Source: a candidate division WOR-3 bacterium
GTDB lineage: Bacteria > Hydrothermota > Tepidihabitantia > B3-TA06
Direction: 5' to 3'
NCBI GenBank assembly: GCA_965649265.1
Contig: CBFGKC010000006.1
Location: 114,975-178,974, forward strand
Length of the DNA stretch: 64,000 nt
The notes under the pieces are model-generated. The model was not told where the DNA came from, searched no databases, and worked only from the letters and a program-made list of their open reading frames with translations. This document shows positions 2,652 through 60,295 of the stretch, piece by piece; position 1 is the stretch's first letter, and each line of letters begins with the position of its first letter. Position numbers and translations under genes: made by a program.

Positions 2652-4340
2652 GTGAACGTGAAACGGTTAGTGCTTTTAATAGTAATCCCAATGATAATCT
2701 TTGCAGGGGATGGATGGGTGAGGACATATGGTGGAGGTGGAGGATGTTGTGTACAATTGACTGATGATGGTGGCTATATTATTGTTGGGGTAAATAGTGA
2801 GCATCTCTCGATTCTTAAAACTGATGGAAACGGTGATACATTGTGGACGAGTTTTTTTCCTGAAGGAATTTGGAGTATCGGGAAGAGCATTACAGAAACA
2901 AGTGATGGATGTTATATTGTAACTGGGTTATTACATGGTTCGGGGATAAATGAAGTCGGTCTTTGGTTAATTAAGGTGGATTCCGTAGGCAAAACATTGT
3001 GGTCATATGTCTACGGAAGTGAGGAAGGAGCTGACGGTGAGTGTGTACAAAAAACAAACGATGGAAACTATATAATTACTGGTATTGTTAAAGGTGATCT
3101 TTGGTTGCTTAAAGCCAACCCTCAAGGTGATACCATTTGGACGAAAAGATATGGCAGAGAGGGTTACGAGGATATCGGTTTATTCCTCGAACAAACAAAG
3201 GACGGTGGTTTCGTAATTACAGGCTATAAAGATTATTCTGTTGCTCTGGGAAGCGAACCTAATTTGTGGTTATTAAGGACTAATTCTCAAGGTGATACCC
3301 TGTGGACAAAAAACTATGGTGGTTTGGGTATTTGTAAAGGGACCTGTGTTCGTCAAACCGAAGATGAGGGGTTCATAGTTACTGGTATAAACCGTTCACT
3401 CAATGACCTATGGTTAATCAAAACCAATAACGCAGGAAACATTGTTTGGTCTAAGATATATGACTGCGGTGTTAACTGGGATGCATCACCTTGTATTCAG
3501 AAAACTATTGACGGGGGGTATATTTTAATAACTATGACTCTTGCTTTTGGTGCAGGTTCCGTAGATTTCTGGTTAGCTAGAACGAATATTGACGGCGACA
3601 CTTTATGGACACGAACCTATGGAGGAACCGGTATAGATTGGCCGTATTATGTACAACAAACAAATGACGAAGGGTACATTCTCGTAGGTTCGGGGATGGG
3701 AGGGCTTATTGTGATTAAGACAGATTCTTTAGGAGATATCGCGGTGGCTGTTTCTCCCACCGATATCGGTCGACCAGACAACGGTGGCGATTATTACGGG
3801 GTTAGACCAGGTGCATATTTTACAAATTGGGGAACATTTGAAGAAGCAAAAGGCTTCTATTGTCATTGTGAAATTGCAGATATCAATGATTCAACTTTAT
3901 TCTACCATGACAGCGTTTTAATCGCTGCTCCCATTAAACCTTGGGAAACAAGATACGTATCATTTGTTCAGTGGATTGCACCTGCGATATCCAGTTTCAC
4001 GGCAACATTCTATACAACAAAAGCCAATAATCCACAGAGAAAGTCAGTTTCCTTTCGTTGGAGCGGTATCGCTGAACCCGTAACACCCGTAAGGTACCAG
4101 GCTTCTCCAGAAATGGAGATATCCTCATCAATCGGTTCGACCATCACCCTTCGCTACTCGAACTGCGCCGACGGTTTCCGGGCGTCCGTCTACGACGCGT
4201 CTGGAAGAGAAATTGACGAGATAGAATCGTCCTCAACCTCAGGCACACTAGAATGGGGGGAGTGTTACGGGCCTGGAATGTACTTTATACTTGCCGAGGG
4301 CTCGAATAGAAGCCCGACAAAGGTCGTGCTGGTCAGGTAG
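2652..4340 (+). CDS. Secreted beta-propeller-like tandem-repeat protein with T9SS CTD
   Basis: There is an N-terminal signal/TM (LVLLIVIPMIIFAG). A repeat of about 50 aa recurs at least 6 times, marked by DGGYI(I/V)(V/T)G ... GDT(L/I)WT(K/R)xYGG. The C-terminus is GMYFILAEGSNRSPTKVVLVR. Paralogs lie at 11732..13069 and 23225..24547. Confidence 0.6.
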   Translation: MNVKRLVLLIVIPMIIFAGDGWVRTYGGGGGCCVQLTDDGGYIIVGVNSEHLSILKTDGNGDTLWTSFFPEGIWSIGKSITETSDGCYIVTGLLHGSGINEVGLWLIKVDSVGKTLWSYVYGSEEGADGECVQKTNDGNYIITGIVKGDLWLLKANPQGDTIWTKRYGREGYEDIGLFLEQTKDGGFVITGYKDYSVALGSEPNLWLLRTNSQGDTLWTKNYGGLGICKGTCVRQTEDEGFIVTGINRSLNDLWLIKTNNAGNIVWSKIYDCGVNWDASPCIQKTIDGGYILITMTLAFGAGSVDFWLARTNIDGDTLWTRTYGGTGIDWPYYVQQTNDEGYILVGSGMGGLIVIKTDSLGDIAVAVSPTDIGRPDNGGDYYGVRPGAYFTNWGTFEEAKGFYCHCEIADINDSTLFYHDSVLIAAPIKPWETRYVSFVQWIAPAISSFTATFYTTKANNPQRKSVSFRWSGIAEPVTPVRYQASPEMEISSSIGSTITLRYSNCADGFRASVYDASGREIDEIESSSTSGTLEWGECYGPGMYFILAEGSNRSPTKVVLVR

Positions 4341-11691: not shown

Positions 11692-11730
11692 ATCCCGAGA
11701 AGTCAGTTTCGGACTTCTCGGGGTCCCGGA
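11692..11730. repeat. Perfect 16-bp-stem inverted repeat (GGGATCCCGAGAAGTC-agtttcg-GACTTCTCGGGGTCCC)
   Basis: It is seen directly in the sequence. It lies between the start of the YD-repeat gene and the stop of 11732..13069. No U-tract follows it on either strand. Confidence 0.5.
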
Positions 11731-13157: not shown

Positions 13158-14453
13158 CTAGCTCGCGTAAGGGAACAGGAACTTTAGCGATGCGCCGAAG
13201 CGGTAGAACTTTTCGGTATACAAATCTTCCTCCAGCCCGAACTTCTTGGACCAGGTCGCGTACTCGAAGGAACTGTTGAGGACAACATACGAAGAGATAG
13301 GTATGCCTATCCCTGCGGTTACACCTTTGAGATACTTTGGTGTGTGCTGGCCTGAGTCGGCCTGCGGGATCGCGTCAAAGTAGAAACCTCCGCGTACTAT
13401 CACAGGCGATACGAATTCGGCACCGAAGCGGAACGTGGAACCGTCGTTCACGCCGAGCCTTGAGCCTAAGGCCTCGACGGCAGTGAAGAAGCGAGTCTGG
13501 AATTCACCTGAAAGATTGAGGAAAGGCAAAATCTTCGACCGCAAACCGACGGTGAAGACGCCGGGCAACATGTAGGCTGTTGAGTCATCTACCTGGTGTT
13601 TTATCTGAATTCCATTAGTGTCCAATACAAGCGTTGAATCAAACCAAGTAATCTCCGTTCCGGAAAGGCTTTCCTCGCCCCATCTCCAGCCCCAGGCTAT
13701 AGGTGATCGATATGAGAAGCTTATACCCAACTGGGGAAAGGGTTCCGCAAACGCGCCTACAGTGAAAAAATTTCCTGTCGAGGAGAAGTTACCTTTGTAT
13801 CTTATTCGTGTTTCATCGTATATACCGGAGGTGTCCCCGTCTTCAATCTCAAGATCATCGTAAACGCTTACTTCGTAATAGCTGCTTTTGAGCTTCTCTA
13901 GTGCGCTGAAGCTGAAGGCCAGACCAATGGAGTAATTGTCCAGTATGCTCATTGCGATCGCCGGGGTTATTACCCTTAAACCGCCGGTTGCGGTATCGGT
14001 CATCTTATAACTTCCGTTTTCGAATTCCCAGTTAATCTCCCTGTTGACGGCATTATCAATATGTAGGTGATAGCCGAAAGCAGGATAGAGCACAGCGTAT
14101 TCCGCGATCTGGATGGGCAAAGCTAAAGAGACGTGTGTGAACTGGGGGATGGTGTTATATTTTGTGTAGTATTGCTCTTCTTGTATCTCTTCCTGGCCGA
14201 AACCCCAGTAAAGCCTTCCGCCGATCTCCATTTCAAGATAATCAGCGTCCAGCAAAAGAGCAGGATTGAAAAAGATGGCGTTCGAACCCTGAGCGCTGAC
14301 CGATCCGGTATTGCCCATGCCGCAGGAACGGACATCCACGACGGTGGGATTAATTGCGTCAACCATAAATGCATAAACGGTTGAATTTACGAAAAATAGC
14401 GGTAACAATACGACCAAAGTCTTAAAGGTCGCTTTTTTTTCAAATCCTGACAT
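13158..14453 (-). CDS. Outer-membrane beta-barrel protein, FadL/OmpP1-like superfamily (possibly PorV/PorQ-like)
   Basis: The ORF is trimmed to the ATG at 14453 (MSGFEKKATFKTLVVLLPLFFVNSTVYA signal). The mature N-terminus, VRSCGMGNTGSVSAQGSNAIFFNPALL, fits the R-x-x-G-M-G-x-x-G ... NPA motif of FadL-like barrels. It has an aromatic-rich C-terminus (FLFPYAS). Confidence 0.4.
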   Translation of the reverse strand: MSGFEKKATFKTLVVLLPLFFVNSTVYAFMVDAINPTVVDVRSCGMGNTGSVSAQGSNAIFFNPALLLDADYLEMEIGGRLYWGFGQEEIQEEQYYTKYNTIPQFTHVSLALPIQIAEYAVLYPAFGYHLHIDNAVNREINWEFENGSYKMTDTATGGLRVITPAIAMSILDNYSIGLAFSFSALEKLKSSYYEVSVYDDLEIEDGDTSGIYDETRIRYKGNFSSTGNFFTVGAFAEPFPQLGISFSYRSPIAWGWRWGEESLSGTEITWFDSTLVLDTNGIQIKHQVDDSTAYMLPGVFTVGLRSKILPFLNLSGEFQTRFFTAVEALGSRLGVNDGSTFRFGAEFVSPVIVRGGFYFDAIPQADSGQHTPKYLKGVTAGIGIPISSYVVLNSSFEYATWSKKFGLEEDLYTEKFYRFGASLKFLFPYAS

Positions 14454-14670
14454 GCACATACCTACCTCCAGGCTTGCCTTTTTTGTATCTATAGTGTATA
14501 CCGAAACATGTGATTTGTCAAGCCCTTCTGTGAGCTTCTGGTCATCTAAGTCAAGCCAAAAAAACATCTGTAACCGTCAGCCCTCTCAGTCATATCCCGG
14601 CATTGGTCTTACAGACTGAGTTAATTGGAATAATATCCAAATCACAAGCAGAGAAAGATGTGTTACTGAG

Positions 14671-14905
14671 TCCTCCTCAGAAACCTCCTCAGAGCTACCC
14701 CTCAGTCTTCCTTACATCCCCGGCGCTCCTCATTGGATCAGTAATAATGAAACAGCAGAAGCCGGAGGGTTCTGCCAATGCGCCTCCGGCGCTCCTCATT
14801 GGAGAGTAGAAGTAAAATGGCGGAAGCGGAGCTTGCGCCCAGCGCCTTCGAGGCGCTCGCTCTCCTCAGAAATACCCTGACACATGTCTGACACACTGAG
14901 CTAAT
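14671..14905. repeat. Composite noncoding repeat element, locus 1 (CCTCAG-type short tandem repeats + GCGCCTCCGGCGCT hairpin modules)
   Basis: Its roughly 85-bp core, atgcgcctccggcgct..ttgga..gtagaa.t.aaatggcggaagcg.agcttgcgcccagcgcc, is shared with two copies at 51946..52170. It is flanked by ACTGAG(T/C)TAAT at 14622 and 14893. Confidence 0.6.
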
Positions 14906-15040
14906 CTTAGCGGTATGTTTCTATTTATGAGCTATGAGGGAGAAGGGGGGGCAGGAGCCCTCCTCAGAGACCTCTCGGTGTCGATTTTACATAATTTTCT
15001 GAGCGGAGTATCTTTCTATTCACGACCAATGAGGGATGGT

Positions 15041-15096
15041 GTGTTACGGGGGGGGGACGGGTGTTACGGGTGGGTGTTACGGGTGGCGTTACGGGG
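15041..15096. repeat. Short tandem repeat (GTGTTACGGG x4, the reverse complement of CCCGTAACAC) overlapping the rSAM stop codon
   Basis: The sequence reads gtgttacggg ggggggacgg gtgttacggg tgggtgttacggg tggcgttacgggg. The rSAM stop codon (TAA at 15089..15091, minus strand) lies inside the last unit. The same unit recurs at 48003..48081 and 58790..58830. Confidence 0.6.
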
Positions 15097-16111
15097 CAGA
15101 GAGAATCTGGGCGACGAATGGTTCGGTACCACCGCATTCATTTGCGGCGGCCCGGCACGATGCCCGGCATGTCTCGATATCCTTGCACCCTCTGCACATC
15201 TCCGGTATATCCTCAATGAACTCCTTCCTTTCGGCGGAATCCATCAGCTCCCAGAAACTTTTTTCCCTGATATTCCCGAGAACGAGCGGGGTGTGGTTGC
15301 ACGGACGCAGATTGCCTATGGAATCCACCACCGGGTAGCACTCCTCGGTTCCCGCCGAGCAGAAACCGAAGCCGAGATGCGGGTAGTTCTTAATATCCAC
15401 GAGGCAGCAGGGGATAGGTATCGATACGCTTATGGGGAACCTCTTTTCTACCGCGAACCGCTCGGCTGTGTCGAGCATGAAGAGCACATCCTGGGGGGAG
15501 GGGGAGAGTTCGTCGAGATTCTCGAGTCCCCTTCCGCCGGGATTGAAGCGGTTGAGCATCACGCCGTGCGTACCGAGGCTCCTTGCGAACTCCAGGGTTT
15601 CCCAGAGCCTTGCGAGGTTGATCTTTGTGACGATCAGGGCGACTACAATCTTCGCCTTTGTCGAAAGCACGGCCTCTATCCCTCGAACTGATTTCTCGAA
15701 GCTTCCACTGCATCCCTGCAGGTATTCGTGCTCGTCTGGCCTGTCCGATAGAAGCTGGATCTCGAAAAGAGAGATTCCAGCCCTCACAAGCGTCTTTGCG
15801 AGTTTCTTGTCGAGCGCCTGGCCGTTCGTGATGATGTTGAGCTGAGCGCCCGAGAGTGCGGCCTGAAGCGAGATGTCCACGAGATCGGGTCTCAGAGTCG
15901 GTTCTCCGCCGCTTATCGTGAAGAGTGACGGCTTCGTCTCTTTTAAGAGCTTTGCCAGCATCTCGCGGGTTTCCTTTGGGTTCAAGTCCTCATGTACAGT
16001 TTCCGGATGCTTATGCCAGATGTTGTAGCAGAAGCGGCATTTGAGATTACATCTTTGGGTTACTTCGAAGATGAGGATTTTCTGGCGGCGGTCCCTTAAC
16101 GAATCGTTCAT
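15089..16111 (-). CDS. Radical SAM enzyme with C-terminal SPASM-type auxiliary cluster domain (peptide/protein-modifying maturase class)
   Basis: The N-terminal CNLKCRFCYN carries the CX3CX2C motif. The C-terminal Cys cluster is PCCLVD...FCSAGTEEC...RPCNH...CRGCKDIETCRASCRAAANECGG. It starts 1 nt after the stop of paralog 16113..16688, and an AAGGAAG Shine-Dalgarno site sits upstream. Confidence 0.75.
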   Translation of the reverse strand: MNDSLRDRRQKILIFEVTQRCNLKCRFCYNIWHKHPETVHEDLNPKETREMLAKLLKETKPSLFTISGGEPTLRPDLVDISLQAALSGAQLNIITNGQALDKKLAKTLVRAGISLFEIQLLSDRPDEHEYLQGCSGSFEKSVRGIEAVLSTKAKIVVALIVTKINLARLWETLEFARSLGTHGVMLNRFNPGGRGLENLDELSPSPQDVLFMLDTAERFAVEKRFPISVSIPIPCCLVDIKNYPHLGFGFCSAGTEECYPVVDSIGNLRPCNHTPLVLGNIREKSFWELMDSAERKEFIEDIPEMCRGCKDIETCRASCRAAANECGGTEPFVAQILSAP

Positions 16112-16112
16112 G

Positions 16113-16688
16113 CTAATTATCTTCCTTTTTCTCAGTTCCTGACGTATCCGGTTTGCTGACTATTAGTTTTGCCAGGTGAGAGGTTTCAGAATTAAGCGAG
16201 GATATTTTCATGAAGACCCTGACGGTTTCAGGCGGAAGGCCTCGAACATCCAGCCTCGCTTCCAGAAGTTCCGCGGAGCTGTCGAATTTCCCGTCGACCG
16301 GGTCGAGCGATATAATATAAGGTTCAGCATCCGGTCGGCTAACCGCGGCCGTAGCACTGTATATTATGTCACCAGGTATTTCTGTTCTTCCAAGAACCTT
16401 TATAGTTACGGAATCCGCACCCCTGGTCGGGTTGGGATAGATCAAAAGCGAGTCGACAATCTCATCTGCAGGCGGAGAAAAATGAACATAGTAGCAAGTA
16501 ATCGCCGGTTCATAGTGACGGTGTGTCAGACATCCTATGAGCGAAAGTAAGCCTCCTAGAAGAACCAGTTTAAAATGTCTGGTTGTTCTTGAAAATCGGT
16601 TCTTGCTCTCTAAAACCGAAAGAAGATGGAATACTAAACCTCCCGCTCGGCTCAACAACCCTGAGAGCCTATTACGCAACTTGATCAC
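16113..16688 (-). CDS. Array paralog 12/12: single-pass membrane protein with TCY/PNPTxGADSV ectodomain
   Basis: The architecture is MIKLRNRLSGLLSRAGGLVFHLLSVLE, then a TM helix (LVLLGGLLSLIGCL), then ITCYY...PNPTRGADSVTIKV. It is the last gene before the rSAM gene. Confidence 0.6.
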   Translation of the reverse strand: MIKLRNRLSGLLSRAGGLVFHLLSVLESKNRFSRTTRHFKLVLLGGLLSLIGCLTHRHYEPAITCYYVHFSPPADEIVDSLLIYPNPTRGADSVTIKVLGRTEIPGDIIYSATAAVSRPDAEPYIISLDPVDGKFDSSAELLEARLDVRGLPPETVRVFMKISSLNSETSHLAKLIVSKPDTSGTEKKEDN

Positions 16689-16717
16689 TGGTCAATATAC
16701 GGCTGATAGGGATGGTG

Positions 16718-17278
16718 TCAATCCTTTTCTTCCGTAGAGTCAGGGTCCGTCACGACAAGCATTAGTTGTTGCGTATACATGCCTGCCTGGGAGGTGTAGA
16801 AGGTCAGGTCCACCCATGTTGTTTCGGAGACAAGCCCTCCGATATAGAACCTCCCCTGAACGGCCTCAAGCGTGTCCGAAAAATCTCCGTCAACCGCATC
16901 GAGAGGCGTAAGAAGCGTGTCTGATGCCAGTTTTATCGTCGCGCCGGTAATGATGTTGCCTTCTATTCCCGGATCGTAAACCTTGGCCGTCGCCTTCACC
17001 GTTACCGTATCCGCGCCTTTTGTAGGATTCGGCGTAATAGCAGCCTCGGTGACTACCACGGGGTCAATTATGGCCATGTCGTAGCAGGTTGCTATGGGTG
17101 TCTCCGGCTGTGCCCTGAGCCAGCCTGCAACAGTCAGAACGAGACCTAAAACGAAGAGCTTGGTCCACCTCGCCGTCTTTTTAATAGTTCCCTCCTCCTC
17201 CCAGCTTGAAAGAACCGGAAGGAGTTTTGCTCCTATCCTCGTTATGAATGATGAAAGCGCGTTTCGAGTCTTAATCAT
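16718..17278 (-). CDS. Array paralog 11/12
   Basis: It reads MIKTRNALSSFITRIGAKLLPVLSSWEEEG, then a TM helix, then IATCYD...PNPTKGADTVTVKATAKV...DGDFSDTLEAVQGRFYIGGL...TDPDSTEEKD. Confidence 0.6.
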   Translation of the reverse strand: MIKTRNALSSFITRIGAKLLPVLSSWEEEGTIKKTARWTKLFVLGLVLTVAGWLRAQPETPIATCYDMAIIDPVVVTEAAITPNPTKGADTVTVKATAKVYDPGIEGNIITGATIKLASDTLLTPLDAVDGDFSDTLEAVQGRFYIGGLVSETTWVDLTFYTSQAGMYTQQLMLVVTDPDSTEEKD

Positions 17279-17307
17279 GTTTTACTGTACCTCACTTTTC
17301 CGGACTG

Positions 17308-17865
17308 TCAATCTTTTTCTGTCGAATCGGGTTCAGAAATCACAAGCTGCAGCCCTTCAACATTTATGCCTGCCTGCGGGGTGTAGAATGTGATGTAAAC
17401 CCGGGTGGTTTCGGGTCCAAGCCCGGTGACGCACAGACGGCCTTCAACTGTCTCGAGCGTGTCCGAAAACTTGCCGTCGACCGCACGGAGAGGGACAATA
17501 ACCGTATCGCCGCCAATTCTTGCATCCGCTCCGGAGATTATATTGCCTTCAAGTTTCGAATCGTAGACCCTTGCGGTCGCTCTCACCGTAACCGAGTCGG
17601 CGCCATTTGTGGGGTTAGGCGTAATAGCAGCCTCAGTGATTATTACCGGTTCAATGACGACCGGATCATAACAGGTCGCATACCCCCTGGTCTCTTGGGC
17701 CGAGAGCCAGCCTAGTAAGCCCAGGATGAAACCCAGAATGTAGATTTTTGCAAATCTCGCGAATCCCTTAAGAACCCCTTCCTCCTCCCACCTTGAGAGA
17801 AGCGGGAAGAGTTTTGCTCCAACATTGCTTACAAACGCCGCGAGCGAGCTGCGAGCTTTGGCCAT
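17308..17865 (-). CDS. Array paralog 10/12
   Basis: It reads MAKARSSLAAFVSNVGAKLFPLLSRWEEEG, then a TM helix, then YATCYD...PNPTNGADSVTVRATARV...DGKFSDTLETVEGRL...SEPDSTEKD. Confidence 0.6.
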   Translation of the reverse strand: MAKARSSLAAFVSNVGAKLFPLLSRWEEEGVLKGFARFAKIYILGFILGLLGWLSAQETRGYATCYDPVVIEPVIITEAAITPNPTNGADSVTVRATARVYDSKLEGNIISGADARIGGDTVIVPLRAVDGKFSDTLETVEGRLCVTGLGPETTRVYITFYTPQAGINVEGLQLVISEPDSTEKD

Positions 17866-17929
17866 AAAATTCCTCCTTGACTGCGACTACTCCTGTTATA
17901 CAGTTGCAGGTGCAATAAATTCCCTTAAC

Positions 17930-18469
17930 CTATTCGGTTATCTCGATATCTGAGCTGTCTTCGATTACCTTGTTCTTGCTTGTAGATATTCTGACATGGA
18001 CTTTTGCGTTTGCGGTATCGATACCCCTGATGCTTAACTTCGCCGAGATTTCCTCGTATGAACCGTCAAAAGCACTATCCGCAGCCAGCATCTCCACCGT
18101 GTCGGAATTTGCACCTTTCCCGGTAATGAAACACTGTGCCGATTTTACATAATTGTCCTTGGAGCCTGGGATTATATTGGCTCTGGCTTTGACCATAACC
18201 GAGTCGGCTCCAGCCGTAGGATCAGGCAAAACCTCGATATTATGAATGGGGGGAGGTACAGGCTCGTAGCACGTGACCGGGCAGCAGGCGGTCGAGCCGG
18301 CCGCTCCGGAAAGACCTAATCCTGAAACGAGTGCACTCAGGAATGAAAGCTTCATCCACCTTGCAAGCTTGGGTAGTACCCTGCGTTCCTCGCATCTTGA
18401 GTAGAAGTCAAAAAGCGCAAAACCGGCTTTCCTGAGAATCTCGAAAACAATGTGTCTTGCCTGAGCCAT
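17930..18469 (-). CDS. Array paralog 9/12
   Basis: The ORF is trimmed to the ATG at 18469 (MAQARHIVFEILRKAGFALFDFYSRCEERRVLP). A TM helix follows, then VTCYEP...PDPTAGADSVMVKARA. Confidence 0.55.
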   Translation of the reverse strand: MAQARHIVFEILRKAGFALFDFYSRCEERRVLPKLARWMKLSFLSALVSGLGLSGAAGSTACCPVTCYEPVPPPIHNIEVLPDPTAGADSVMVKARANIIPGSKDNYVKSAQCFITGKGANSDTVEMLAADSAFDGSYEEISAKLSIRGIDTANAKVHVRISTSKNKVIEDSSDIEITE

Positions 18470-18476
18470 GATACTG

Positions 18477-19016
18477 CTATTCTGATTCCGTGATGTACAA
18501 ATCCACTGTCGTGTAATCTCGCTCCCCTTTATTGGAGGTGGCCTCAATGTTTACACTGCAGGTATCGCCTGCGGCAAGATTGCCTACGTATAATCGAGCT
18601 TCTACGTCTTTCATTCCGTATGGATCGGTTTTCGTGACAATCATCGTTATGGTGTCGTCATTAAGAACACATATCACCTTATCCACATAATCTTCTTCTA
18701 TGCTTACTCCATTGGGGACATTTGCGCTCGCTTCAACGGTTACTGAATCTGAGCCTGACGTCGGATTAGGGGTTATTGAGCAGGTTGCGATTTGAGGTTT
18801 CGGGTACTCCATCGGTGCGTAACACGTTATGCAGTTGAGCATGCTGGCCGCACTCAATGCGGTAATTCCTGTCACGAAGGCTCCGAGGAAGGTCGTTTTT
18901 ACCCACCTGGAAGCCCTTGGCAGTATCCCGCAATCCTCACAGTGGGAGAAGAAGTTGAAGAGTGATGTTCCCATTCTCCTCAAGGTTTCAAAGAAGAGGT
19001 AGCGGCTACTGGCCAT
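18477..19016 (-). CDS. Array paralog 8/12
   Basis: It reads MASSRYLFFETLRRMGTSLFNFFSHCEDCGILPRASRWVKTTFLGAFVTGITAL, then ITCYAP...PNPTSGSDSVTVEASA. The N-terminal 50 aa are near-identical to paralog 7. Confidence 0.55.
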   Translation of the reverse strand: MASSRYLFFETLRRMGTSLFNFFSHCEDCGILPRASRWVKTTFLGAFVTGITALSAASMLNCITCYAPMEYPKPQIATCSITPNPTSGSDSVTVEASANVPNGVSIEEDYVDKVICVLNDDTITMIVTKTDPYGMKDVEARLYVGNLAAGDTCSVNIEATSNKGERDYTTVDLYITESE

Positions 19017-19031
19017 TGTGCCTCCGGTGAT

Positions 19032-19547
19032 TTATTCAGTTATCTCGAGGTCGATTGTTGTATCCGCTCGCTGGTCTTCATTGTCGTATTCTGTGATTTG
19101 TATGGTTACTGTATCGGGCTCGAGGTCTCCTATATACAACTTCGCGTTCACGGCATATTCATTCGTGTAGTCTCCAGGCTCTATCTTCATGACGGTGGTG
19201 TCATTCTCGAGGATACATATCACCTTTTTCAATTCAATCCCGTTATCGGCAATTGCCTTGGCGGAAACGCTAACAGTGTCGGCCCCTGCCGTAGGATTTG
19301 GTGCCACGGAGGCGTTTTCGATTCGAGGTGATTCAATTGGCAAGTAGCAGCCGGTGGGGATACAGTTGATCATGCTGGCCGCGCTCAACGCGGTAATTCC
19401 TGTCACGAAGGCTCCGAGGAAGGTCGTTTTTACCCACCTGGAAGCCCTTGGCAGTACCCCGCATTCCTCACAGCGAGAGAAGAAGTTAAAGAGTGAGGTG
19501 CCTATCCTCCTCAAGGATTCAAAGAAAAAAAACTTTGTTCTAGCCAT
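19032..19547 (-). CDS. Array paralog 7/12
   Basis: The ORF is trimmed to the ATG at 19547 (MARTKFFFFESLRRIGTSLFNFFSRCEECGVLPRASRWVKTTFLGAFVTGITAL). A TM helix follows, then PTGCYLP...PNPTAGADTVSVSAKA. Confidence 0.55.
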   Translation of the reverse strand: MARTKFFFFESLRRIGTSLFNFFSRCEECGVLPRASRWVKTTFLGAFVTGITALSAASMINCIPTGCYLPIESPRIENASVAPNPTAGADTVSVSAKAIADNGIELKKVICILENDTTVMKIEPGDYTNEYAVNAKLYIGDLEPDTVTIQITEYDNEDQRADTTIDLEITE

Positions 19548-19629
19548 GGTTCCTCCTTTCACTGTATTAAATATAATCAACTTGCTCGGATTGTCAATCC
19601 ATGAAAATCACCTGAAATCCTGGCAGGTG

Positions 19630-20157
19630 TTATTTATCAGTAACGCGGAGAACGGTCGAGCCTATGCCCCAGCCTGAGGTTTTTGAATCGACTTTTACAA
19701 AGACCTGAGTGCTGTCCGTTTTGATTTTCTTCACGTATATGCGCCCGATGAGTTCCTCATTATTCTCGTCGAATGCGCCGTCCCTCGCTATCATCCGGAT
19801 GGTGTCTCCATCGACTATGCACTGGGCTGAGGCTATTATTTCGAGATCGCTTGCGTTTTCAAGTCTGGCTTTGGCGGTAACGGTCACCGAGTCGGCGCCT
19901 TTCGTCGGGTTAGGCTTGACTACTATCTCCGAAACCCTGGGATATACGGCCACAGGTTCGTAGCAGGTCACGAGCCCCTGATCCAGCGGAGGTTTTTTGG
20001 CGCATGCCGCAATGATGGTCAGCCACGCTCCAGCAAGCGCGAGCTTGAGCCAGCGTGATATCCTTGGCAGAGCGCTTCGTTCCTCACACCCGGTCAGAAT
20101 GGAGAACAGTGCCGAGCCTGTTCTCCTCAAAAACCTTGACAGTAACTCTCGCTTCAT
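19630..20157 (-). CDS. Array paralog 6/12
   Basis: It reads MKRELLSRFLRRTGSALFSILTGCEERSALPRISRWLKLALAGAWLTIIAACA, then VTCYEP...PNPTKGADSVTVTAKA. Its start overlaps the upstream stop by 4 nt (20154..20157). Confidence 0.6.
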   Translation of the reverse strand: MKRELLSRFLRRTGSALFSILTGCEERSALPRISRWLKLALAGAWLTIIAACAKKPPLDQGLVTCYEPVAVYPRVSEIVVKPNPTKGADSVTVTAKARLENASDLEIIASAQCIVDGDTIRMIARDGAFDENNEELIGRIYVKKIKTDSTQVFVKVDSKTSGWGIGSTVLRVTDK

Positions 20158-20726
20158 AACGAGTCCTTTTCAGTGATAAATAGCGGTAATGAAACCAGTG
20201 CTTCTTCACCCTTGGAAGTGGCCGCGTGCACGTAGACGAAGGTGGTCCCGGGTTTAAGACCCGCGACGCTGATGCGTGCCTCAATCATCTCGACGGTATC
20301 CGAGAAGCGGCCGTCCACAGGGTACATCCGGATTTTCCTTGACGTATCAATGGCCATTACGAGCCAAGCATCCGACACGTAATTGTTCTCAAGGCCAGGT
20401 TCCAGCACCCTTGCGGTGCCCGTTATCTTGACAGTGTGCACGCCCCTTGTCGGGTTCGGGCTTGCCTGAACTACTGAGATTTCGGGATCCATCCTTCTCA
20501 TCATGTAACATGTGTGGACAGGACCGTCGCCGTCTCCTCCTGGTCCGGGTCTTGCCTTTTTCCCGCACGAGGCTATCAGGGCGACAACGAGCCCGAGTAG
20601 CGAAACCTTCAAAAAGCGCGCGGTCTTTGAAAATATTGGAGTATCCTGGCATCTCGATAGCGCATTAAACACCAGATTACCTGCATTTCTGAGAACTGCA
20701 ATCAAGCTCTTTCTCATCTTTGCCAT
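20154..20726 (-). CDS. Array paralog 5/12
   Basis: It reads MAKMRKSLIAVLRNAGNLVFNALSRCQDTP, then a TM helix, then a Gly/Asp-rich insert (PGPGGDGDGP), then VHTCYMM...PNPTRGVHTVKITGTARV. Confidence 0.6.
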   Translation of the reverse strand: MAKMRKSLIAVLRNAGNLVFNALSRCQDTPIFSKTARFLKVSLLGLVVALIASCGKKARPGPGGDGDGPVHTCYMMRRMDPEISVVQASPNPTRGVHTVKITGTARVLEPGLENNYVSDAWLVMAIDTSRKIRMYPVDGRFSDTVEMIEARISVAGLKPGTTFVYVHAATSKGEEALVSLPLFITEKDSL

Positions 20727-20745
20727 TCTGCCTCTCCTATCTCGT

Positions 20746-21288
20746 TTAATCTGGTTCAGTAATCACCAGTTCTAAAGATTCAATTTCAATTTGACCGGAA
20801 GAATTTTCTACCTCTAAGTATATCCATGTCGTTTCCGGCTCAAGGTCTCCAACGTAAAGTCGGCCGACTATTCTCTCCGAAGCGGCGTCGAATTTCCCGT
20901 CAATCGCCCGCATGGGGTAATATATTGTATCTCCATCCATTCTCATGCGGGCTGAGCTTATCGTGCTTTCGCCGCTGTAGTGATCGCTAATCTTTGCCGT
21001 GGCCTTGACGGTTACCGAATCGGCGCCCCTTGTAGGGTTAGGCCTTACGGAAAGTTTGGATAGTTCTATGAGGGGAGGGGGGGCGGGCTTGTAGCACATT
21101 ATGACGTCTTCCTTTGCTTCGAGCGAGAGAGCGCTCACGAGTGCCACGAAAAATCCGAGGAATGTGAGCTTCAACCATCTTGCCGCCCCGGGGAGGATGC
21201 GGCGTTCCTCGAATCCGGAAAACGTTCCGAAAAGCCTTCCGCCAATCCTTGCAAAAAAGTCTGCCAGGCGTTTTCTGAGTTCAGGCAT
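20746..21288 (-). CDS. Array paralog 4/12
   Basis: It reads MPELRKRLADFFARIGGRLFGTFSGFEERRILPGAARWLKLTFLGFFVALVSAL, then IMCYKP...PNPTRGADSVTVKATAKI. Confidence 0.6.
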   Translation of the reverse strand: MPELRKRLADFFARIGGRLFGTFSGFEERRILPGAARWLKLTFLGFFVALVSALSLEAKEDVIMCYKPAPPPLIELSKLSVRPNPTRGADSVTVKATAKISDHYSGESTISSARMRMDGDTIYYPMRAIDGKFDAASERIVGRLYVGDLEPETTWIYLEVENSSGQIEIESLELVITEPD

Positions 21289-21289
21289 A

Positions 21290-21859
21290 TCAATCCTCCT
21301 TATTCTCGTTGCTGTCCGCTTCCGGTGCGGTGATGATTAATTGCCTCCAGGTGCTTTCCGCGTTGCCTGAGTTTGTCCTCACCACTATGTAAATCCAGGT
21401 GGTCTCCGGCTTGTGATCCCCGACGTAGAGACGGCCTTCGACTGTTTCAAGGGTATCGCCGAACTTACCGTCAACCGCTTTCATCGGATATAAAAGGGTA
21501 TCTCCGGTAAGCTGCATAATTGCTTCGGAAACAGCGGTGTCACCTGAGCAATAATATGCAGATTCCAATTTTGCGGTTGCCTTGACTGTAACGGTGTCTT
21601 TTCCTGCAGTGGGGTTCGGTGTTGCCGAGACATCGAAGATACTTAAGTGAGGTTCCTCAATAGGCACGTAGCACATGATGATATCGTCGTCCGCCTTGAG
21701 CGCTGGCGCGCCCAGCAGGGTTACCAGCAATCCCAGAACCGAAAGCTTTAGCCATCTTGCCGGTCTGCGTAGGATACCGCGTTCCTCCAATCCGGACAGT
21801 ATCCCGAATAAGGAGCCGCCTATCCGTGAAGAGATGCGGGCCAGTAAGCCTTTTGTCAT
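21290..21859 (-). CDS. Array paralog 3/12
   Basis: It reads MTKGLLARISSRIGGSLFGILSGLEERGILRRPARWLKLSVLGLLVTLLGAPAL, then IMCYVP...PNPTAGKDTVTVKATAKL. Confidence 0.6.
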   Translation of the reverse strand: MTKGLLARISSRIGGSLFGILSGLEERGILRRPARWLKLSVLGLLVTLLGAPALKADDDIIMCYVPIEEPHLSIFDVSATPNPTAGKDTVTVKATAKLESAYYCSGDTAVSEAIMQLTGDTLLYPMKAVDGKFGDTLETVEGRLYVGDHKPETTWIYIVVRTNSGNAESTWRQLIITAPEADSNENKED

Positions 21860-22435: not shown

Positions 22436-22436
22436 G

Positions 22437-23009: not shown

Positions 23010-23059
23010 CGTCGCTCCTTTAATTCTCAATACAAGAAAACATCTCAAATATTCCCCAC

Positions 23060-23088
23060 AATATAAGCCCCAAAAGACAGGTGTCAAG
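23060..23088 (-). promoter_or_regulatory. Candidate sigma70 promoter for the 12-paralog/rSAM operon
   Basis: On the minus strand it reads TTGACA-N16/17-TATATT (the plus strand shows tgtcaa at 23083..23088 and aatata at 23060..23065). It lies about 50 nt upstream of the first paralog's start. Confidence 0.4.
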
Positions 23089-29301: not shown

Positions 29302-30046
29302 GGAACAGCTCCTTGCCGTTGCGTTCGGTAAGTGCCGCTATATCCTCAGCAGGTTTGACTAGAATTTCGGCCGCCTTCTCCACAACATATCGGACATATG
29401 CGGGTTCGTTACGTTCCCGGCGATGGGGTTCGGGCGTCAGGTAGGGACAATCGGTCTCCACTAGAAGCCGCTCGAGTGGTGCATTGCCTAGCCAGCGTCG
29501 GGTTCTCAGAGCGTCATAAGTTATGGTTCCGTTCAGACCGAGGTAGAAGCCGAGTTCGACTATTCTGTCCACCTGATTCGAATCGGCGGACACCGAATGG
29601 AACACACCCCAGTAGTAGCCGATTTCCTCTACCGTTCGTATGGTATCGTCCATCGCCTCCCTGGTGTGAATAACTATCGGTAGCTTAACGGACTCGGCGA
29701 GTTCTATCTGCTCGGCAAACACCCGGCGCTGGACGTCGCGCGGGGAGAGGTCCCTGTAGAAATCTAACCCTATTTCTCCAATGGCCTTGACCTTCTCGTG
29801 TCTTGTCAATTCCTCAAGTCTGATTAAATAGTCAGGAGGTGTGTTACGGGAGTCGTGAGGATGATAACCCACGGCAACCCATACCCCGTCGTGTCTTTCC
29901 GCGAAGCCAATGGCATCCTCGCACGATCGCAGGTCCCAGCCCACCTCAAGCATGAGCGTGACACCCTCCCCCCTGGCCCGTTCTAAGACTCTCTCCCTGT
30001 CATTAGCGAAACGTTTGTGGCATATATGGGTGTGGGTATCGAACAT
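29294..30046 (-). CDS. tatD: TatD-family metal-dependent hydrolase/DNase
   Basis: It starts MFDTHTHICH and carries the conserved His/Asp/Glu residues of TatD (LMLEVGWD, AIGEIGLDFY, IVIHTREA, LVETDCPYL). It overlaps rsmA by 8 nt. Confidence 0.8.
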   Translation of the reverse strand: MFDTHTHICHKRFANDRERVLERARGEGVTLMLEVGWDLRSCEDAIGFAERHDGVWVAVGYHPHDSRNTPPDYLIRLEELTRHEKVKAIGEIGLDFYRDLSPRDVQRRVFAEQIELAESVKLPIVIHTREAMDDTIRTVEEIGYYWGVFHSVSADSNQVDRIVELGFYLGLNGTITYDALRTRRWLGNAPLERLLVETDCPYLTPEPHRRERNEPAYVRYVVEKAAEILVKPAEDIAALTERNGKELFLG

Positions 30047-33957: not shown

Positions 33958-33998
33958 CGGTCATAATCGATCTGCGTAGTTCTTGAATCAAATAATCC

Positions 33999-46738: not shown

Positions 46739-47998
46739 ATGGAGCACATCCCACTCCTTGCGAAGCTCGGAATTATCTTCGGCGTCATCATCGTCGTCAT
46801 GGTATTCAGGCTGCCCACGTTCGTGCCAATCCTTTTGGGCGCTGTCGTCACCGGCGTCCTCTTCACCATGCCCGCGCTCGATATCGGAAGAACATTCCTC
46901 GACAGCGTAATAGACTTCTACACCATTGACACCATCCTCATCGTCTGCTTCATCGAGATTCTCGGCAAGATGATGAAGGAGCGCGGCATCCTCTCGCGAT
47001 TCGCCGGCGGCGCCGACTACCTTCTGCGGGGCTCTCGCGTGAGCGTGGTCACGATCCCCATGTTCGTCGGCCTCCTGCCAATGCCGGGCGGCGCCTACTT
47101 CACCGCACCCATGACCGAGGAGCAGATAAAACCCTACGGAATAAAGCCCGGGCTCGCGGTCTACATCAACTACTGGTTCCGGCACGTGTGGGAGTACTTC
47201 TGGCCGCTTTACCCCGGCCTCATCGTGGGCTTCGCCATCCTCAAGGACGTCACCGTCGGCTCCGTCATCATCCACCAGTCGTTCGTGACACTGCTCGCGA
47301 TTGCGGCGGGCGCCGTCATCATCTTTGCCTTCGTCAAGCGCAGGGTGGTGCGGCCGGAGCGTCTTGCGGGCAAGGGTCGTTCTTCCACAAAAGACGTGCT
47401 CTACGGCGCGTTCCCTCTACTCATCATCGTCGTCCTCATCGTGGTCACGCAGGCGCTTGGCTCCATAGTCAAGATTCCCGTTTCCTCCGTCATGCTGATC
47501 GTGCTGGTCTCTTCGTGGATATTCTACAAGGTTCCATTGAAAGGTTCAGGCAAGCTCATTCTTTCCGCGCTCGACTGGCGCGTGATCTCGCTCATGGCGT
47601 CGGTCATGTTCTTCAAGTACATGCTCGACCGTTCGTCCGCGCTGACCGGGCTCGGCCCGATGCTTGCAGGGGCCCCCTCCTCCCTCATCATCGCCATGAT
47701 AATGTTTCTTCCCTTCGTGGTCGGACTCCTCGTGGGACTCAACCAGGCGTACGTTGCCACGACGTTTCCCCTGCTCGCGCCCTTCATCGGCCATGACCCC
47801 GGACTCGTCATGCTCGCGTACGCGTTCGGGTTCTTCGGCGTGATGCTCTCGCCCTCGCACCTCTGCCTTGCCTTATCGCGCGAGTACTTCAAGGCGAGCT
47901 GGGGCTCGGTGTACAAGTGGTTGGTGCCCTCAGTGATCGCGGTCGCCGTCGTGACGTTCGCCGTGTGGTTCTTCCTGTTCCCGCATCCTAAACTATAG
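46739..47998 (+). CDS. Polytopic membrane transporter-like protein (DUF401/ion-transporter-superfamily-like)
   Basis: It is 419 aa with about 10-12 hydrophobic helices. Internal two-fold similarity is apparent. The family assignment is tentative. Confidence 0.45.
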   Translation: MEHIPLLAKLGIIFGVIIVVMVFRLPTFVPILLGAVVTGVLFTMPALDIGRTFLDSVIDFYTIDTILIVCFIEILGKMMKERGILSRFAGGADYLLRGSRVSVVTIPMFVGLLPMPGGAYFTAPMTEEQIKPYGIKPGLAVYINYWFRHVWEYFWPLYPGLIVGFAILKDVTVGSVIIHQSFVTLLAIAAGAVIIFAFVKRRVVRPERLAGKGRSSTKDVLYGAFPLLIIVVLIVVTQALGSIVKIPVSSVMLIVLVSSWIFYKVPLKGSGKLILSALDWRVISLMASVMFFKYMLDRSSALTGLGPMLAGAPSSLIIAMIMFLPFVVGLLVGLNQAYVATTFPLLAPFIGHDPGLVMLAYAFGFFGVMLSPSHLCLALSREYFKASWGSVYKWLVPSVIAVAVVTFAVWFFLFPHPKL

Positions 47999-48002
47999 AT
48001 AC

Positions 48003-48081
48003 CCCCCGTAACACCCCCCCCCGTAACACCCCTCCCGTAACACACCCCCGTAACACACCCCGTAACATGCTCCGTAACACG
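48003..48081. repeat. Short tandem repeat, CC(C)CGTAACAC x6
   Basis: The unit cgtaaca sits at 48007, 48022, 48036, 48049, 48061 and 48073, separated by C-rich spacers. The array lies immediately after the transporter stop at 47998. Confidence 0.65.
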
Positions 48082-48294
48082 CCAACGTCATCCTGAGAAC
48101 CGCAGATGCGGGGCGAAAGGATCGCCTTCAGAAGGCAGTTTCTTTGAACACATGGGATCATTTATGTCTAAGGCGATGGCTTTGCTTGCTCGAAGCAGCC
48201 GTGCAAAGACACCCTCGTCCCACTTTCCCAGAGGGCAGGGGGTGTCCCACTTCGATAGGGGGGAGGGGGGGATTAATGTTTTGAGGGGGTCAGG

Positions 48295-51738: not shown

Positions 51739-51827
51739 TTCATCCTCCTTTGCATTGTTATACATCTTGTCCCAAGGTTTATTCCGCTCTCCATGATTTG
51801 TAATCGTGAATCGCATAAGCTTATGCA

Positions 51828-57018: not shown

Positions 57019-58787
57019 GAAAAGAAGAAACTGGTCGAATAGTAAAGGTATCGGGCCCGCTGGTCATTGCCGAGGGTATGAGTACCTCAAAGATGTACGA
57101 CGTGGTTAAAGTGTCGGACAAGCGTCTTGTTGGTGAAATTATTGGATTGTCAGGCACTCGTGCCTCGATACAGGTTTACGAGGAGACAGGCGGTATCGGC
57201 CCCGGTGAACCCGTATATCCGACATACGAACCCCTTTCCGTGGAGCTTGGTCCGGGTCTTATTGAGGCCATTTACGACGGGATTCAGCGTCCCCTGTCAG
57301 ATATAGCGGATAAAACGGGAGCCTTCATATCCCGAGGTGTTGAAGTGCCTGCGCTGCCGCGCGACAAGAAATGGGATTTCGTCCCCTCCCTCAAGAAGGG
57401 CGACAAGGTTGGGCCTGGCGATGTGCTCGGAACGGTCAAGGAAACGATACTCATCGAGCACCGTATACTGGTTCCACCGGGTGTATCCGGCGAAATCGTA
57501 GAAATATCAAAAGGCTCGTTTAACGTGGAGTCGACCGTTGCCGTCATCAAATCACCCGAAGGTAAAAGCATCGAAGTCGCAATGATGCAGCGCTGGCCGG
57601 TCAGAAAACCCCGTCCGTATATGCGCAAATATTCGCCATTTGAGATTCTATCCACGGGGCAGCGCGTTGTGGACACGTTCTTCCCGCTCGGAAAGGGTGG
57701 AACCGCATGCGTTCCAGGGCCGTTCGGATCGGGCAAGACCGTCATCCAGCATCAGCTGGCCAAGTGGGCGGATGCCGAAGTGATCGTCTACGTGGGCTGC
57801 GGCGAGCGCGGAAACGAGATGACCGATGTGCTCATAGAGTTCCCGGAACTCAAGGACCCCAAATCGGGCGAGCCCCTTATGAAACGCACGGTGCTCATCG
57901 CCAACACATCGAACATGCCGGTTGCCGCACGGGAAGCGTCGGTCTACACCGGTATTACGATAGCCGAGTACTTCCGTGACATGGGGTATTCGGTTGCCCT
58001 CATGGCCGACTCAACCTCGCGCTGGGCCGAGGCCATGCGAGAGATTTCCGGACGCCTCGAGGAGATGCCCGGTGAAGAAGGTTATCCTGCATATCTTTCC
58101 GCTCGCATCGCCGAGTTCTACGAACGCGCTGGACTTGTCGAATGTCTGGGCTCGACCTCGAAAAGAGGGGCCCTGTCCGTTATCGGCGCCGTGTCCCCTC
58201 CGGGCGGCGACCTTTCGGACCCGGTCGTTCAAGCCACCTTGCGCGTCGTAAAGGTTTTCTGGTCGCTAGAGGACAAACTGGCCTACGCCCGCCATTTTCC
58301 TGCAATTTCCTGGTTGCGCTCTTACTCCTTATATGTCGATTCGATCTCGGCAAAGCTGCGTGAAGAGATAGGAACTAACTTCCTTGAGGATACGAAGGAA
58401 GCCATGAGACTCTTGCAGGAGGAGGCCGATCTGACCGAGATAGTCCGACTCATCGGCATTGACGCACTTTCACCTAACGAACGCCTCATTATGGAAGCGG
58501 CGCGTTCGATTCGCGAGGACTTTCTGCACCAGAACGCGTTCCACGAGATTGACACGTACGCCAGCCTTGATAAACAGGCACGTATGCTTTCCCTTGTTCT
58601 CTGCTACTACAAAGAAACCAAGAAGGCACTCGAACAGGGAGCACTTCTTGAAGATCTCGTCAGCCTCCAGGTTCGTGAAAAGATTGCCCGAGCTCGCTAC
58701 CTGCCTGAGAGCGAGCGCGAAACCATCACTAAAACCGAGGAGGAGGTTATCGCTGAAATCGCTTCCTTAAAGAAGGAGGTCTCCTGA
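57015..58787 (+). CDS. atpA: V-type ATP synthase catalytic subunit A
   Basis: The Walker A motif is GPFGSGKTV. The sequence [13 protein letters not shown] and the A-type non-homologous insert are present. The product is 590 aa. Confidence 0.9.
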
Positions 58788-60295
58788 TGCCCCGTAACAC
58801 CCGTAACACACCCAATCCCTCCCATAACACCTCCCAAACTCTTGAGGAAACCTCTGGTTTAAAGCCTACTGTGGAAGATAAACCCAAGGGTATAATCGAT
58901 TACCAGACGATTACCTCTGTTTCTGGTCCACTCCTTCTCGTTGAGGGAGTCGAAGGAGTCAAGTATGAGGAGCTTGTTGAGATATTCCTTCCCTCAGGCG
59001 AACGCCGCAGGGGAAGGGTGCTTGAGGTTAACCAGGACAAGGCGCTCATACAGATATTTGAGGGTTCCTCGGGAATCGAGATAGGCCAGACAAGGGTACG
59101 CTTTCTTGGCAAGGGCATAACCTTGGGGGTCTCCGAGGAACTTCTCGGCCGCGTATTCGACGGCCTGGGCCGCCCGCGCGACAGCTCACCCGAGCTTATC
59201 CCTGAAGAATTTCGCGACATCAACGGTCTTCCAATCAATCCCTTCGCTCGCAGCTACCCCAACGAGTTTATCGAGACAGGCATCTCCGCTATAGACGGAT
59301 TGAACACGCTAGTACGTGGGCAGAAGCTTCCTATCTTCTCCGGTTCCGGTTTGCCGCACAACCGCATGGCGGCTCAGATAGCGCGTCAGGCAAAAGTACT
59401 CGGCGCAGCGGAGGAGTTTGCGGTGGTGTTCGGCGCAATGGGCATCACGTTCGAGGAAGCCCAGTTCTTTATCGATGATTTCCGCCGTACAGGGGCCCTT
59501 GAGCGCGCGGTACTCTTTCTTAACCTTGCGGACGACCCTGCAATCGAGCGAATCGCGACACCGCGTGTTGCGTTCACCGCAGCGGAGTATCTCGCCTTTA
59601 CGAAGAATTATCACGTCCTCGTTATCCTCACAGACCTGACCAATTACTGCGAGGCCCTTCGTGAGATATCCGCCGCCCGAAAGGAGATTCCCGGTCGGCG
59701 CGGTTACCCCGGCTATCTATACACCGATCTTGCCACCATCTACGAGCGATCAGGCCGCATCAAGGATTCGACCGGTTCCATAACCCTCGTTCCCATTCTC
59801 ACCATGCCCGAGGACGACAAGACCCACCCTATTCCAGACCTTACCGGGTATATCACCGAGGGGCAGATCATCCTTTCCCGCGTACTCAATAACAAGAACG
59901 TCGCTCCGCCGGTAGACGTACTCCCCTCCCTCTCCCGTCTCAAGGACAAGGGTATAGGCAAGGGAAAAACTCGCGAGGATCACGCGGATTCGTTTAACCA
60001 GCTTTACGCCGCGTATGCACGAGGCAAGGAAGCCCAGGAACTGGCCGTGATTCTCGGTGAGGCGGCGTTGACCGATATCGACAAGCTTTACATGAAATTT
60101 GCCGAGGCGTTCGAGCGCCGCTACATTTCCCAGGGCGAGTACGAGGCTCGCAGCATCGAGGAGACACTTGATTTGGGTTGGGAGCTTTTGACCAGTCTTC
60201 CGCGTTCGGAGATGAAGCGCGTTCGGGACGAAAACCTTGCAAAGTATTACGATACCGCGTTCGCAAAATTCCAGAAGACCGGGGAGAAATCATAA
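58787..60295 (+). CDS. atpB: V-type ATP synthase subunit B
   Basis: The product is 502 aa and closely follows the B-subunit pattern ([20 protein letters not shown]). It starts in an ATGA overlap with atpA. Its first roughly 30 codons are an N-terminal extension ([15 protein letters not shown]...) that is partly encoded by CCGTAACAC repeats. Confidence 0.85.

Follow-up and report, generated by a model that had tools for sequence, protein, structure and literature searches.

We analysed a 64,000-nt stretch of the genome of a candidate division WOR-3 bacterium (assembly GCA_965649265.1, contig CBFGKC010000006.1, positions 114,975 to 178,974), which we call the window, in which a very short repeat recurs in tandem arrays. 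Its basic unit is (A)CCCGTAACAC, mostly 9 or 12 nt long, and we counted it by the exact 9-mer CCGTAACAC. A sequence-only reading of the window had placed arrays at 15041-15096, 48003-48081 and 58790-58830, and all three are found there (Table 1); Tandem Repeats Finder delimits them as 15033-15096, 48001-48080 and 58791-58809. They lie at the end of a radical SAM/SPASM (rSAM) gene, just behind a gene for a DUF401 membrane protein, and at the start of atpB, where the open reading frames (ORFs) 57015-58787 and 58787-60295 encode V-type ATPase subunits A and B.

The word is strongly over-represented. We counted 13 exact copies in the window against 0.31 expected, and none of 100 dinucleotide-preserving shuffles reached 13; with one mismatch allowed, the figures are 33 and 9.6. 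Ten of the 13 copies fall within the three arrays. The other three, which the earlier reading overlooked, are isolated and all intra-ORF, at 4078 (+), 4262 (-) and 29841 (-). With this clustering and a density of 0.2 per kb, we reject a DNA uptake sequence, for which about one copy per kb, mostly single, would be expected.

Table 1. Repeat arrays, isolated units and adjoining features, in coordinates of the 64-kb window
Feature	Position	Strand	Remarks
1.6 units (CCCGTAACACCCGTAAGG)	4077..4095 (exact copy at 4078)	+	within ORF 2652-4340, translated PVTPVR
Single antisense unit	4262..4270	-	within ORF 2652-4340, frame reads ECYG
Promoter TTGACA-17-TACACT	14521-14493	-	followed by Shine-Dalgarno GGAGG and ATG near 14458 for the next gene
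Mosaic-repeat spacer, about 630 nt	14459..15088	-	CCGTAACAC array, TCTGAGGAGG units, 64/130-nt family copies, promoter
4-unit array	15041..15096	-	CCCCGTAACGCC, ACCCGTAACAC, CCACCCGTAACAC, truncated CCCGT, C-run, CCGTAACAC
Radical SAM/SPASM gene	15089..16111	-	final codons ..ILSAP* run into the array
Single sense unit	29841..29849	-	within TatD gene, translated SRNTP
DUF401 membrane protein gene	46739..47998	+	stop TAG 47996-47998
6-unit array	48003..48081	+	5 exact units and 1 variant; C 42, G 8
Terminator-like hairpin GCCTTCAGAAGGC and T-rich tail	48124..48146	+	downstream of the DUF401 array
Translation signals	58773..58789	+	Shine-Dalgarno AAGGAGG 58773-58779; atpA TGA 58785-58787; atpB ATG 58787-58789
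In-frame array	58790..58830	+	atpB codons 2-15; two exact units (9-nt period) and one degenerate unit

Arrays at three genes of the window

The array at the rSAM gene, read in its minus-strand sense, comprises three exact units, a variant (CCGTAACGC) and a truncated unit. The TAA of its first unit (15089-15091) ends the ORF, just as had been proposed from the sequence. In the window the protein ends ..ILSAP*, against ..VLDK* in an orthologue of 89% identity and ..VLDNVKR* in one of 79%. The next gene of these orthologues, which has a Shine-Dalgarno sequence, lies 52 or 44 nt further on, against a spacer of about 630 nt here. The array is missing from the orthologous sites of close relatives. 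No intrinsic terminator was found behind the rSAM gene in a pattern scan of 14400-15300.

The DUF401 array is 79 nt long, noncoding, and begins 5 nt past the TAG, with unit spacings of 15, 14, 13, 12 and 12 nt. The window protein carries six extra C-terminal residues; its orthologues at two related loci, L117 and L118 (loci and proteins of relatives carry L and P numbers here), stop six codons earlier and have no array at that site. The sole intrinsic terminator that the pattern scan found near 48003 is the hairpin at 48124, downstream of the array. Because the rSAM and DUF401 arrays are both absent from orthologous 3' ends, we regard them as recent gains and not as conserved signals, which speaks against the earlier proposal that the element acts at gene 3' ends.

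At the third site, the ATG of atpB overlaps the TGA of atpA, and the array opens straight after this ATG, giving an N-terminus that reads MPRNTRNT. The strong Shine-Dalgarno sequence 7 nt upstream of the start means that the array is almost certainly translated. The nearest named relatives of the window AtpB belong to candidate division WOR-3/Stahlbacteria. Whether the N-terminal extension recurs in relatives had been posed as a check, and an RNT-bearing extension is indeed found in close orthologues: the window, L117 and P0002 have the array, L118 has a degenerate form, and L119 and L120 lack it but still keep a basic low-complexity extension together with the Shine-Dalgarno/ATG arrangement. 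The number of RNT units varies among AtpB N-termini inside a single 90%-identity cluster, and the repeat is lacking in relatives that are about 80% identical or more distant.

All three arrays are C-rich and G-poor (C/G ratios of 5.2, 5.3 and 10.5). They fold poorly as RNA, with minimum free energies (MFEs) of -0.2 to -1.4 kcal/mol that are no better than those of shuffles, and the 101 nt around 48003 have an MFE of -0.2 kcal/mol (z = +2.65). The suggestion of a terminator-like structure therefore falls, given also that the DUF401 array has its own downstream hairpin. We reject an intrinsic terminator, because the arrays do not fold and the pattern scan locates none in them.

The spacer behind the rSAM gene shares copies of a 64/130-nt repeat family with the region at 51.8-52.2 kb (families D7, D13 and D15). 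This family occupies 14720-14855 in the spacer and 51809-52170 in the divergent region upstream of the ATPase cluster, and combines with TCTGAGGAGG units into mosaic repeat blocks. The ORF that follows (13158-14567, minus strand) probably starts about 36 codons downstream of its listed 5' end, at the ATG near 14458: the region 14458-14567 contains the TTGACA-17-TACACT promoter and the GGAGG, and orthologues align only from MCMSGFEKK. Separately, a hairpin family (CCCCAAG..TACTTCGTA..CTTGGGGACCCCG) stands directly after stop codons at 11692-11729, 33363-33400, 44348-44385 and 49726-49763, with an inverted copy at 2601-2625, and it also follows CCGTAACAC arrays in L004 and L082. These hairpins are probably real terminators or a REP-like element (REP, repetitive extragenic palindrome), and they and the 48124 hairpin are more likely terminators than the arrays are. 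At L004 (7548-7665), two inverted arrays surround a terminator-like hairpin between a stop codon and the promoter of the next gene, and the two could pair as an 18-bp long-range stem.

Distribution and contexts across the WOR-3 clade

We scanned a 596-Gb collection, one genome per species, for two adjacent exact CCGTAACAC units and recovered at least 116 stretches. By our estimate, chance would yield about 156 matches over 596 Gb, scattered singly, and most taxa appear once. Among the matches listed, tandem CCGTAACAC clusters occur in at least eight WOR-3/Stahlbacteria assemblies, with at least 10 loci each in JAGMDF01 and SOJW01, at least 8 in DAOVCF01, at least 7 in JAYELY01, at least 4 in JAUVJT01, at least 3 each in CAZUXE01 and JAFGSK01, and at least 1 in WJJO01. 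Many loci in each of eight assemblies make CCGTAACAC a property of the clade and not a quirk of a single genome. The earlier suggestion of a sequence-specific element is thus borne out to the extent that the word is non-random and shared by several species of one WOR-3 clade. A scan of viral contigs for the repeat gave 95 matches, mostly single. A literature search on the motif and on WOR-3/Stahlbacteria repeats turned up no description, only unrelated primer matches and genome-survey papers.

The same 9-mer also appears in other repeats outside the clade. In Cloacimonas (L013, L037, L038, L042, L085 and L104) it sits in an 11-nt unit followed by inverted GTTAC copies, all inside a longer conserved element, and in a Fimbriimonadaceae metagenome-assembled genome (MAG; L041, L044, L065 and L089) it lies within a 16-nt unit, CCGTAACACCGCAATA. 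We do not count these as members of the same family, because their unit structures differ.

We then classed the contexts of 65 arrays from the related genomes and the window. These loci were selected for at least two adjacent exact units, the gene models follow a longest-ORF heuristic with Pfam support for about 20 proteins, and the categories overlap (the atpB array is one example). Several of the arrays are orthologous, and so not independent, and MAG assemblies may collapse repeats. On the C-rich strand, a long sense ORF ends at or within 25 of the 65 arrays, against 3 on the opposite strand. Some have a stop codon 4-11 nt ahead of the array, some use the TAA of the array as the stop, and some are read through to give a C-terminal RNT tail. 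This sense bias is partly built in, because TAA occurs in one frame of the C-rich strand only.

Arrays also lie elsewhere. Eight start 5-14 nt past a start codon, and five of these have a Shine-Dalgarno sequence; ATGACCCGTAACAC, encoding MTRNT, is typical, and the group includes atpB in three genomes and the ABC ATPase at a FecCD/ABC ATGA overlap. In 11 arrays, TTGAC follows within a few bases of the G-rich strand, so that the array sits immediately upstream of a -35 box whose promoter points away from it, as in GTGTTACGGGGTGTTACGGggggcTTGACA-17 nt-TATGAT at L004. The genes beside these promoter-proximal arrays (Crp-like regulator, TrkH, OmpH, aminotransferase, CAAX protease and HAD hydrolase) have no common function, and we reject a transcription-factor regulon on that ground. 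A further 17 arrays are embedded in long ORFs, 8 in sense and 9 in antisense. Verified hosts include GlyS-beta, RsmB/F, HypF, ComEC and a GGDEF-TPR protein; an ABC ATPase and AtpB are further hosts. One array occupies the RnfC/RnfD spacer. At the junctions, 59 of 63 arrays have C at position -1, and 25 of 63 have ACC at positions +1 to +3.

Thus, while each window array directly follows a stop codon, as had been noted, this does not extend to the family as a whole, and arrays that stand after start codons, at -35 boxes and inside genes on either strand are at odds with an element acting at gene 3' ends. Genes make use of all five stop-free frames: the sense ones read RNT or PVT, the antisense ones VLR, CYG or VTG. 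This usage suggests a phenomenon at the level of the DNA, not a signal carried by peptide or RNA, and we reject a protein-level role of the RNT repeat because five open frames over both strands are in use.

Copy-number change and a linked module

Unit numbers differ between orthologous arrays (L101 and L008, L001 and L079, and ComEC in L091 and L048). A series is seen in a loop of GlyS-beta, ANITR(EL..)NTP, which holds from 0 to 7 RNT/HNT units across relatives, with the single-unit forms found among the more distant ones. This series shows in situ expansion from one seed. Variant units are grouped in neighbouring blocks (L035, L112 and L116), as local duplication would predict. Expansion respects the reading frame: inside long open frames, 66 of 71 unit spacings are divisible by 3, against 53 of 77 elsewhere (Fisher P = 3 × 10−4). 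We reject a phase-variation contingency locus, because intragenic changes keep the frame (66 of 71) and promoter-proximal arrays lie upstream of the -35 box and not between -35 and -10.

The arrays are linked to a longer module. In related genomes and metagenomes we find 41 copies of a 66/69-nt element, CCGTACCCCTTCGGGGCATTCTCATAATTAyTyGGAGCTTrCGCTCC..CAAGGAAATAACAC, and a sister version; the window has no copy. CCGTAACAC units flank nearly every copy of the module, and copies are often chained in tandem (L054, L055, L056, L099, L115, L018, L221 and L223-L255). Both lengths, 66 and 69 nt, are divisible by 3. The 9-mer results when the module's opening five bases, CCGTA, are joined to its last four, ACAC. 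Within the N-terminal extension of atpB, the module is found in frame in L221 and in proteins P0242 and P0243 (..RNTRTPSGHSHNYSELALRSQGNNTRNT..). One orthologous site is occupied by array, module and array in L099 and by an array alone in L075, and such filled and empty sites suggest that the module may be mobile. It contains two short hairpins with a single covarying pair, probably one event, so that support for them is weak. Rfam gave no match at the gathering threshold in the window or in eight related loci, and none at E <= 10 on a module-rich stretch; we accordingly reject a known RNA family. A classification of the module as a TA-duplicating miniature inverted-repeat transposable element, or as an IS200/IS605-type element, we set aside as speculation, given a weak terminal inverted repeat (about 7 of 11 by eye) and no linked transposase.

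The window holds further repeats and paralogues. Other short tandem families lie in spacers or gene starts at 4653-4718 and 49593-49724, 44430-44488, 51847-51912, 36490-36524 and 33820-33964, with units TTTTGTCCAyC, CCTCAGCCCC (x5.8), CCCTCCTCAGA (x6), CCCTCCTCG (x3.9) and a 40-mer (x3.6). C-richness and periodic C tracts mark several of them. A FlgD_ig/T9SS-tail protein (ORF 44725-46359) has eight internal repeats of 57 nt (19 aa) at 45734-46234 (minus strand). Directly upstream of the rSAM gene stand about 11 tandem paralogous ORFs of 175-216 aa (16113-23087, minus strand), an arrangement also seen in relatives at L216-L220. The rSAM enzyme could have them as substrates or partners; the single ORF compared with Pfam (16113-16688) gave no match.

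Interpretation and comparison with known systems

We favour, at a probability of roughly 0.55, a clade-specific, expansion-prone mosaic repeat family, probably selfish, that persists at permissive sites. Its arrays would grow and shrink by local tandem duplication of the slipped-strand type. The seeds would be single copies or motif-like sequences, such as a TAA or TGA stop followed by C, an ATG-ACC start, a -35 box, or a chance TRNT run as in GlyS. Arrays would survive only where they do little harm, in spacers, in first or last codons and in surface loops or linkers, and there in-frame lengths would be kept. An array that enters a gene end in its TAA frame supplies the stop, as in the rSAM case, and one in another sense frame is translated as RNT or PVT repeats, as in atpB. 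A sequence-specific activity would keep CCGTAACAC uniform, and the arrays themselves may be near-neutral or selfish.

Several observations weigh against this reading. The exact 9-mer is kept across species whose AtpB differ by 10-25%, which points to a trans-acting factor, and we found none. Arrays at 3' ends are mostly C-rich in sense (by our reading, about 18 credible sense against about 2 antisense), co-directional gene pairs split about 15 against 5, and arrays often lie only 1-10 nt from a stop codon or a -35 box. Pure neutrality does not predict polarity at gene ends, unless seeding at TAA/TGA-C explains it. Heuristic gene models, the choice of loci with at least two exact units and the non-independence of orthologous arrays also limit the case, and slippage is a presumed mechanism. 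Given the exactness of the 9-mer and the polarity at gene ends, two functional explanations keep some probability: Rho loading, perhaps as a role co-opted by the long C-rich arrays that stand untranslated past stop codons, and a DNA-binding boundary protein. Both are weakened by short arrays, by copies at coupled junctions and inside genes, by variable spacing, and by the lack of conservation at orthologous 3' ends.

That the 9-mer equals the joined ends of the module suggests a trans-acting activity that recognises the motif. CCGTA/ACAC might be the recognition or junction site of a mobile system, at which the module and a nicking, transposition or template-copying enzyme enter or leave. Short tandem footprints, left or triggered by this system, would come to lie in intergenic DNA and, with the frame kept, in essential genes such as atpB and glyS; we consider this possible but doubtful. 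It is unlikely that the arrays are Rho-loading pads resembling Rho utilization (rut) sites, that is, C-rich, unstructured stretches that recruit Rho past stop codons and end transcription, with copies facing away from promoters stopping divergent or antisense transcripts and translated copies inert. The composition of the arrays and their unstructured RNA fit, as do the sense-strand bias at ORF ends and the missing intrinsic terminator after the rSAM gene. The two terminal window arrays measure 79 nt (48003) and 56 nt (15041), with a 12-15-nt unit period, which comes close to the footprint of the E. coli Rho hexamer. A rut site takes about 60-80 nt of untranslated sense RNA past a stop, a length that the 48003 array has and the 15041 array nearly has; the atpB array is translated. 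Yet most arrays have only 2-4 units (18-45 nt), many are coding or antisense, nine of them antisense within genes, and some sit at the translationally coupled operon junctions atpA/atpB, FecCD/ABC and RnfC/RnfD. Moreover, the 3'-end arrays are not kept at orthologous sites, and several arrays are followed by ordinary hairpin terminators. We hold it to be distinctly unlikely that the arrays bind a clade-specific protein that marks the boundaries of transcription units, be it as a roadblock that terminates transcription, an insulator or an activator site upstream of the promoter. An exact 9-mer conserved across species with variable spacers would suit such a protein, as would arrays right past stops and, in 11 cases, 1-10 nt upstream of TTGACA, and the inverted arrays of L004, which bracket a hairpin and of which the second leads directly into a TTGACA promoter. 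However, units are spaced anywhere between 7 and 24 nt and thus lack helical phasing, and the distance to the -35 box is variable. The neighbouring genes lack a common function, arrays occur in coupled operon junctions and housekeeping ORFs and are gained and lost between close relatives, and no candidate protein was identified.

We rate the remaining explanations lower. In one, DNA structure would be the driver: the G-rich strand, (GGGTGTTAC)n, would form G-quadruplexes (G4s) and the C-rich strand i-motifs, either functional, as in polymerase pausing, or prone to slippage. Two of only four canonical G4 motifs in the window are arrays, at 15048-15074 (+) and at 48002-48036 (on the G-rich minus strand), and the window families CCTCAGCCCC, CCCTCCTCG and CCCTCCTCAGA likewise have periodic C3-4 tracts. 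Still, a G4 takes four tracts of at least three G spaced 1-7 nt apart, which those two arrays possess and arrays of fewer than four units do not; most arrays are of that smaller size and so form no intramolecular G4. The non-G part, TGTTAC, is as strictly conserved as the G tract, a conservation that a purely structural role does not need, and on sequence grounds we judge this explanation very improbable. In the other, an unstructured A/C-rich array past a start codon, especially at ATGA overlaps, would keep the initiation region open and enhance initiation or reinitiation. This agrees with the eight arrays 5-14 nt past a start codon, the five Shine-Dalgarno sequences among them and the unstructured RNA. 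It leaves unexplained the arrays after terminal genes, upstream of promoters and antisense in genes, and the AtpB of L119 and P0004 is made without an array. We think it extremely improbable.

The clade-specific repeat family has practical and broader consequences. For annotation, its arrays account for odd gene ends in the clade: they provide stop codons, lengthen proteins at the N- or C-terminus by low-complexity sequence, make ORF calls too long and interrupt assemblies; in JAGMDF01, the contigs of L005 and L087 begin with an array and the L008 array lies 68 nt from a contig start. It offers a clear case, found in nature, of a very short repeat kept identical across species and expanding in frame within essential proteins such as the V-ATPase B subunit and glycyl-tRNA synthetase. 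These features, together with the tie to a hairpin module, imply that a sequence-specific activity is at work in this phylum, which is almost uncultured. Should the long C-rich arrays past stop codons prove to load Rho, they would be unusually regular and easily recognised Rho terminators.

Among known systems, the short tandemly repeated repetitive (STRR) sequences of heterocystous cyanobacteria have 7-nt units that are tandem, dispersed, restricted to a lineage and conserved across species, with a function that is not established. Like them, the WOR-3 family has a single, very short unit that recurs in tandem at many scattered loci, is confined to one lineage and is conserved across its species. 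Unlike them, its unit is 9-12 nt long, enters coding regions in frame on either strand and is linked to the 66/69-nt module. Nor is it predominantly noncoding: of 65 arrays, about 17 sit inside long ORFs and a further 20 or so overlap gene termini. The Rickettsia palindromic elements (RPEs) offer a parallel for in-frame, translated repeat DNA in housekeeping genes, seen here at the AtpB N-terminus, in the GlyS-beta loop, in the RsmB/F linker and in the L221 module. As with RPEs, the repeat stands in frame in unrelated housekeeping ORFs and is absent from orthologues (GlyS-beta, AtpB, RsmB/F, HypF, ComEC and the ABC ATPase). However, RPEs are discrete, mobile, palindromic single insertions of 100-150 bp, whereas the WOR-3 form is mainly a non-palindromic 9-12-nt array expanding in situ, for which transposition is not shown.

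Mycobacterial interspersed repetitive units (MIRUs) resemble the family in being tandem repeats at co-directional operon junctions with overlapping stop and start codons (ATGA and array at atpA/atpB and FecCD/ABC); they differ in being 40-100 bp long and essentially intergenic, whereas the WOR-3 units of 9-12 nt are also intragenic and promoter-upstream. The bacterial interspersed mosaic elements (BIMEs) of E. coli, built of REPs, and the Neisseria intergenic mosaic elements (NIMEs), with dRS3, likewise combine several modules per spacer (window 14459-15088 and 51809-52170, and L233), with short repeats flanking longer modules, usually just past stop codons. Unlike in BIME/REP, the 9-mer is non-palindromic and no enzyme, of REP-associated tyrosine transposase (RAYT) type or other, is linked to it, and REP-type elements are normally untranslated. 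Two window arrays share with rut sites a C-rich, G-poor, unstructured sense sequence of 56-79 nt past a stop; rut sites do not consist of exact repeats of a conserved word, and most WOR-3 arrays are too short for one, or are translated or antisense. No compared system has its defining features fully represented here, and the family behaves most like STRR.

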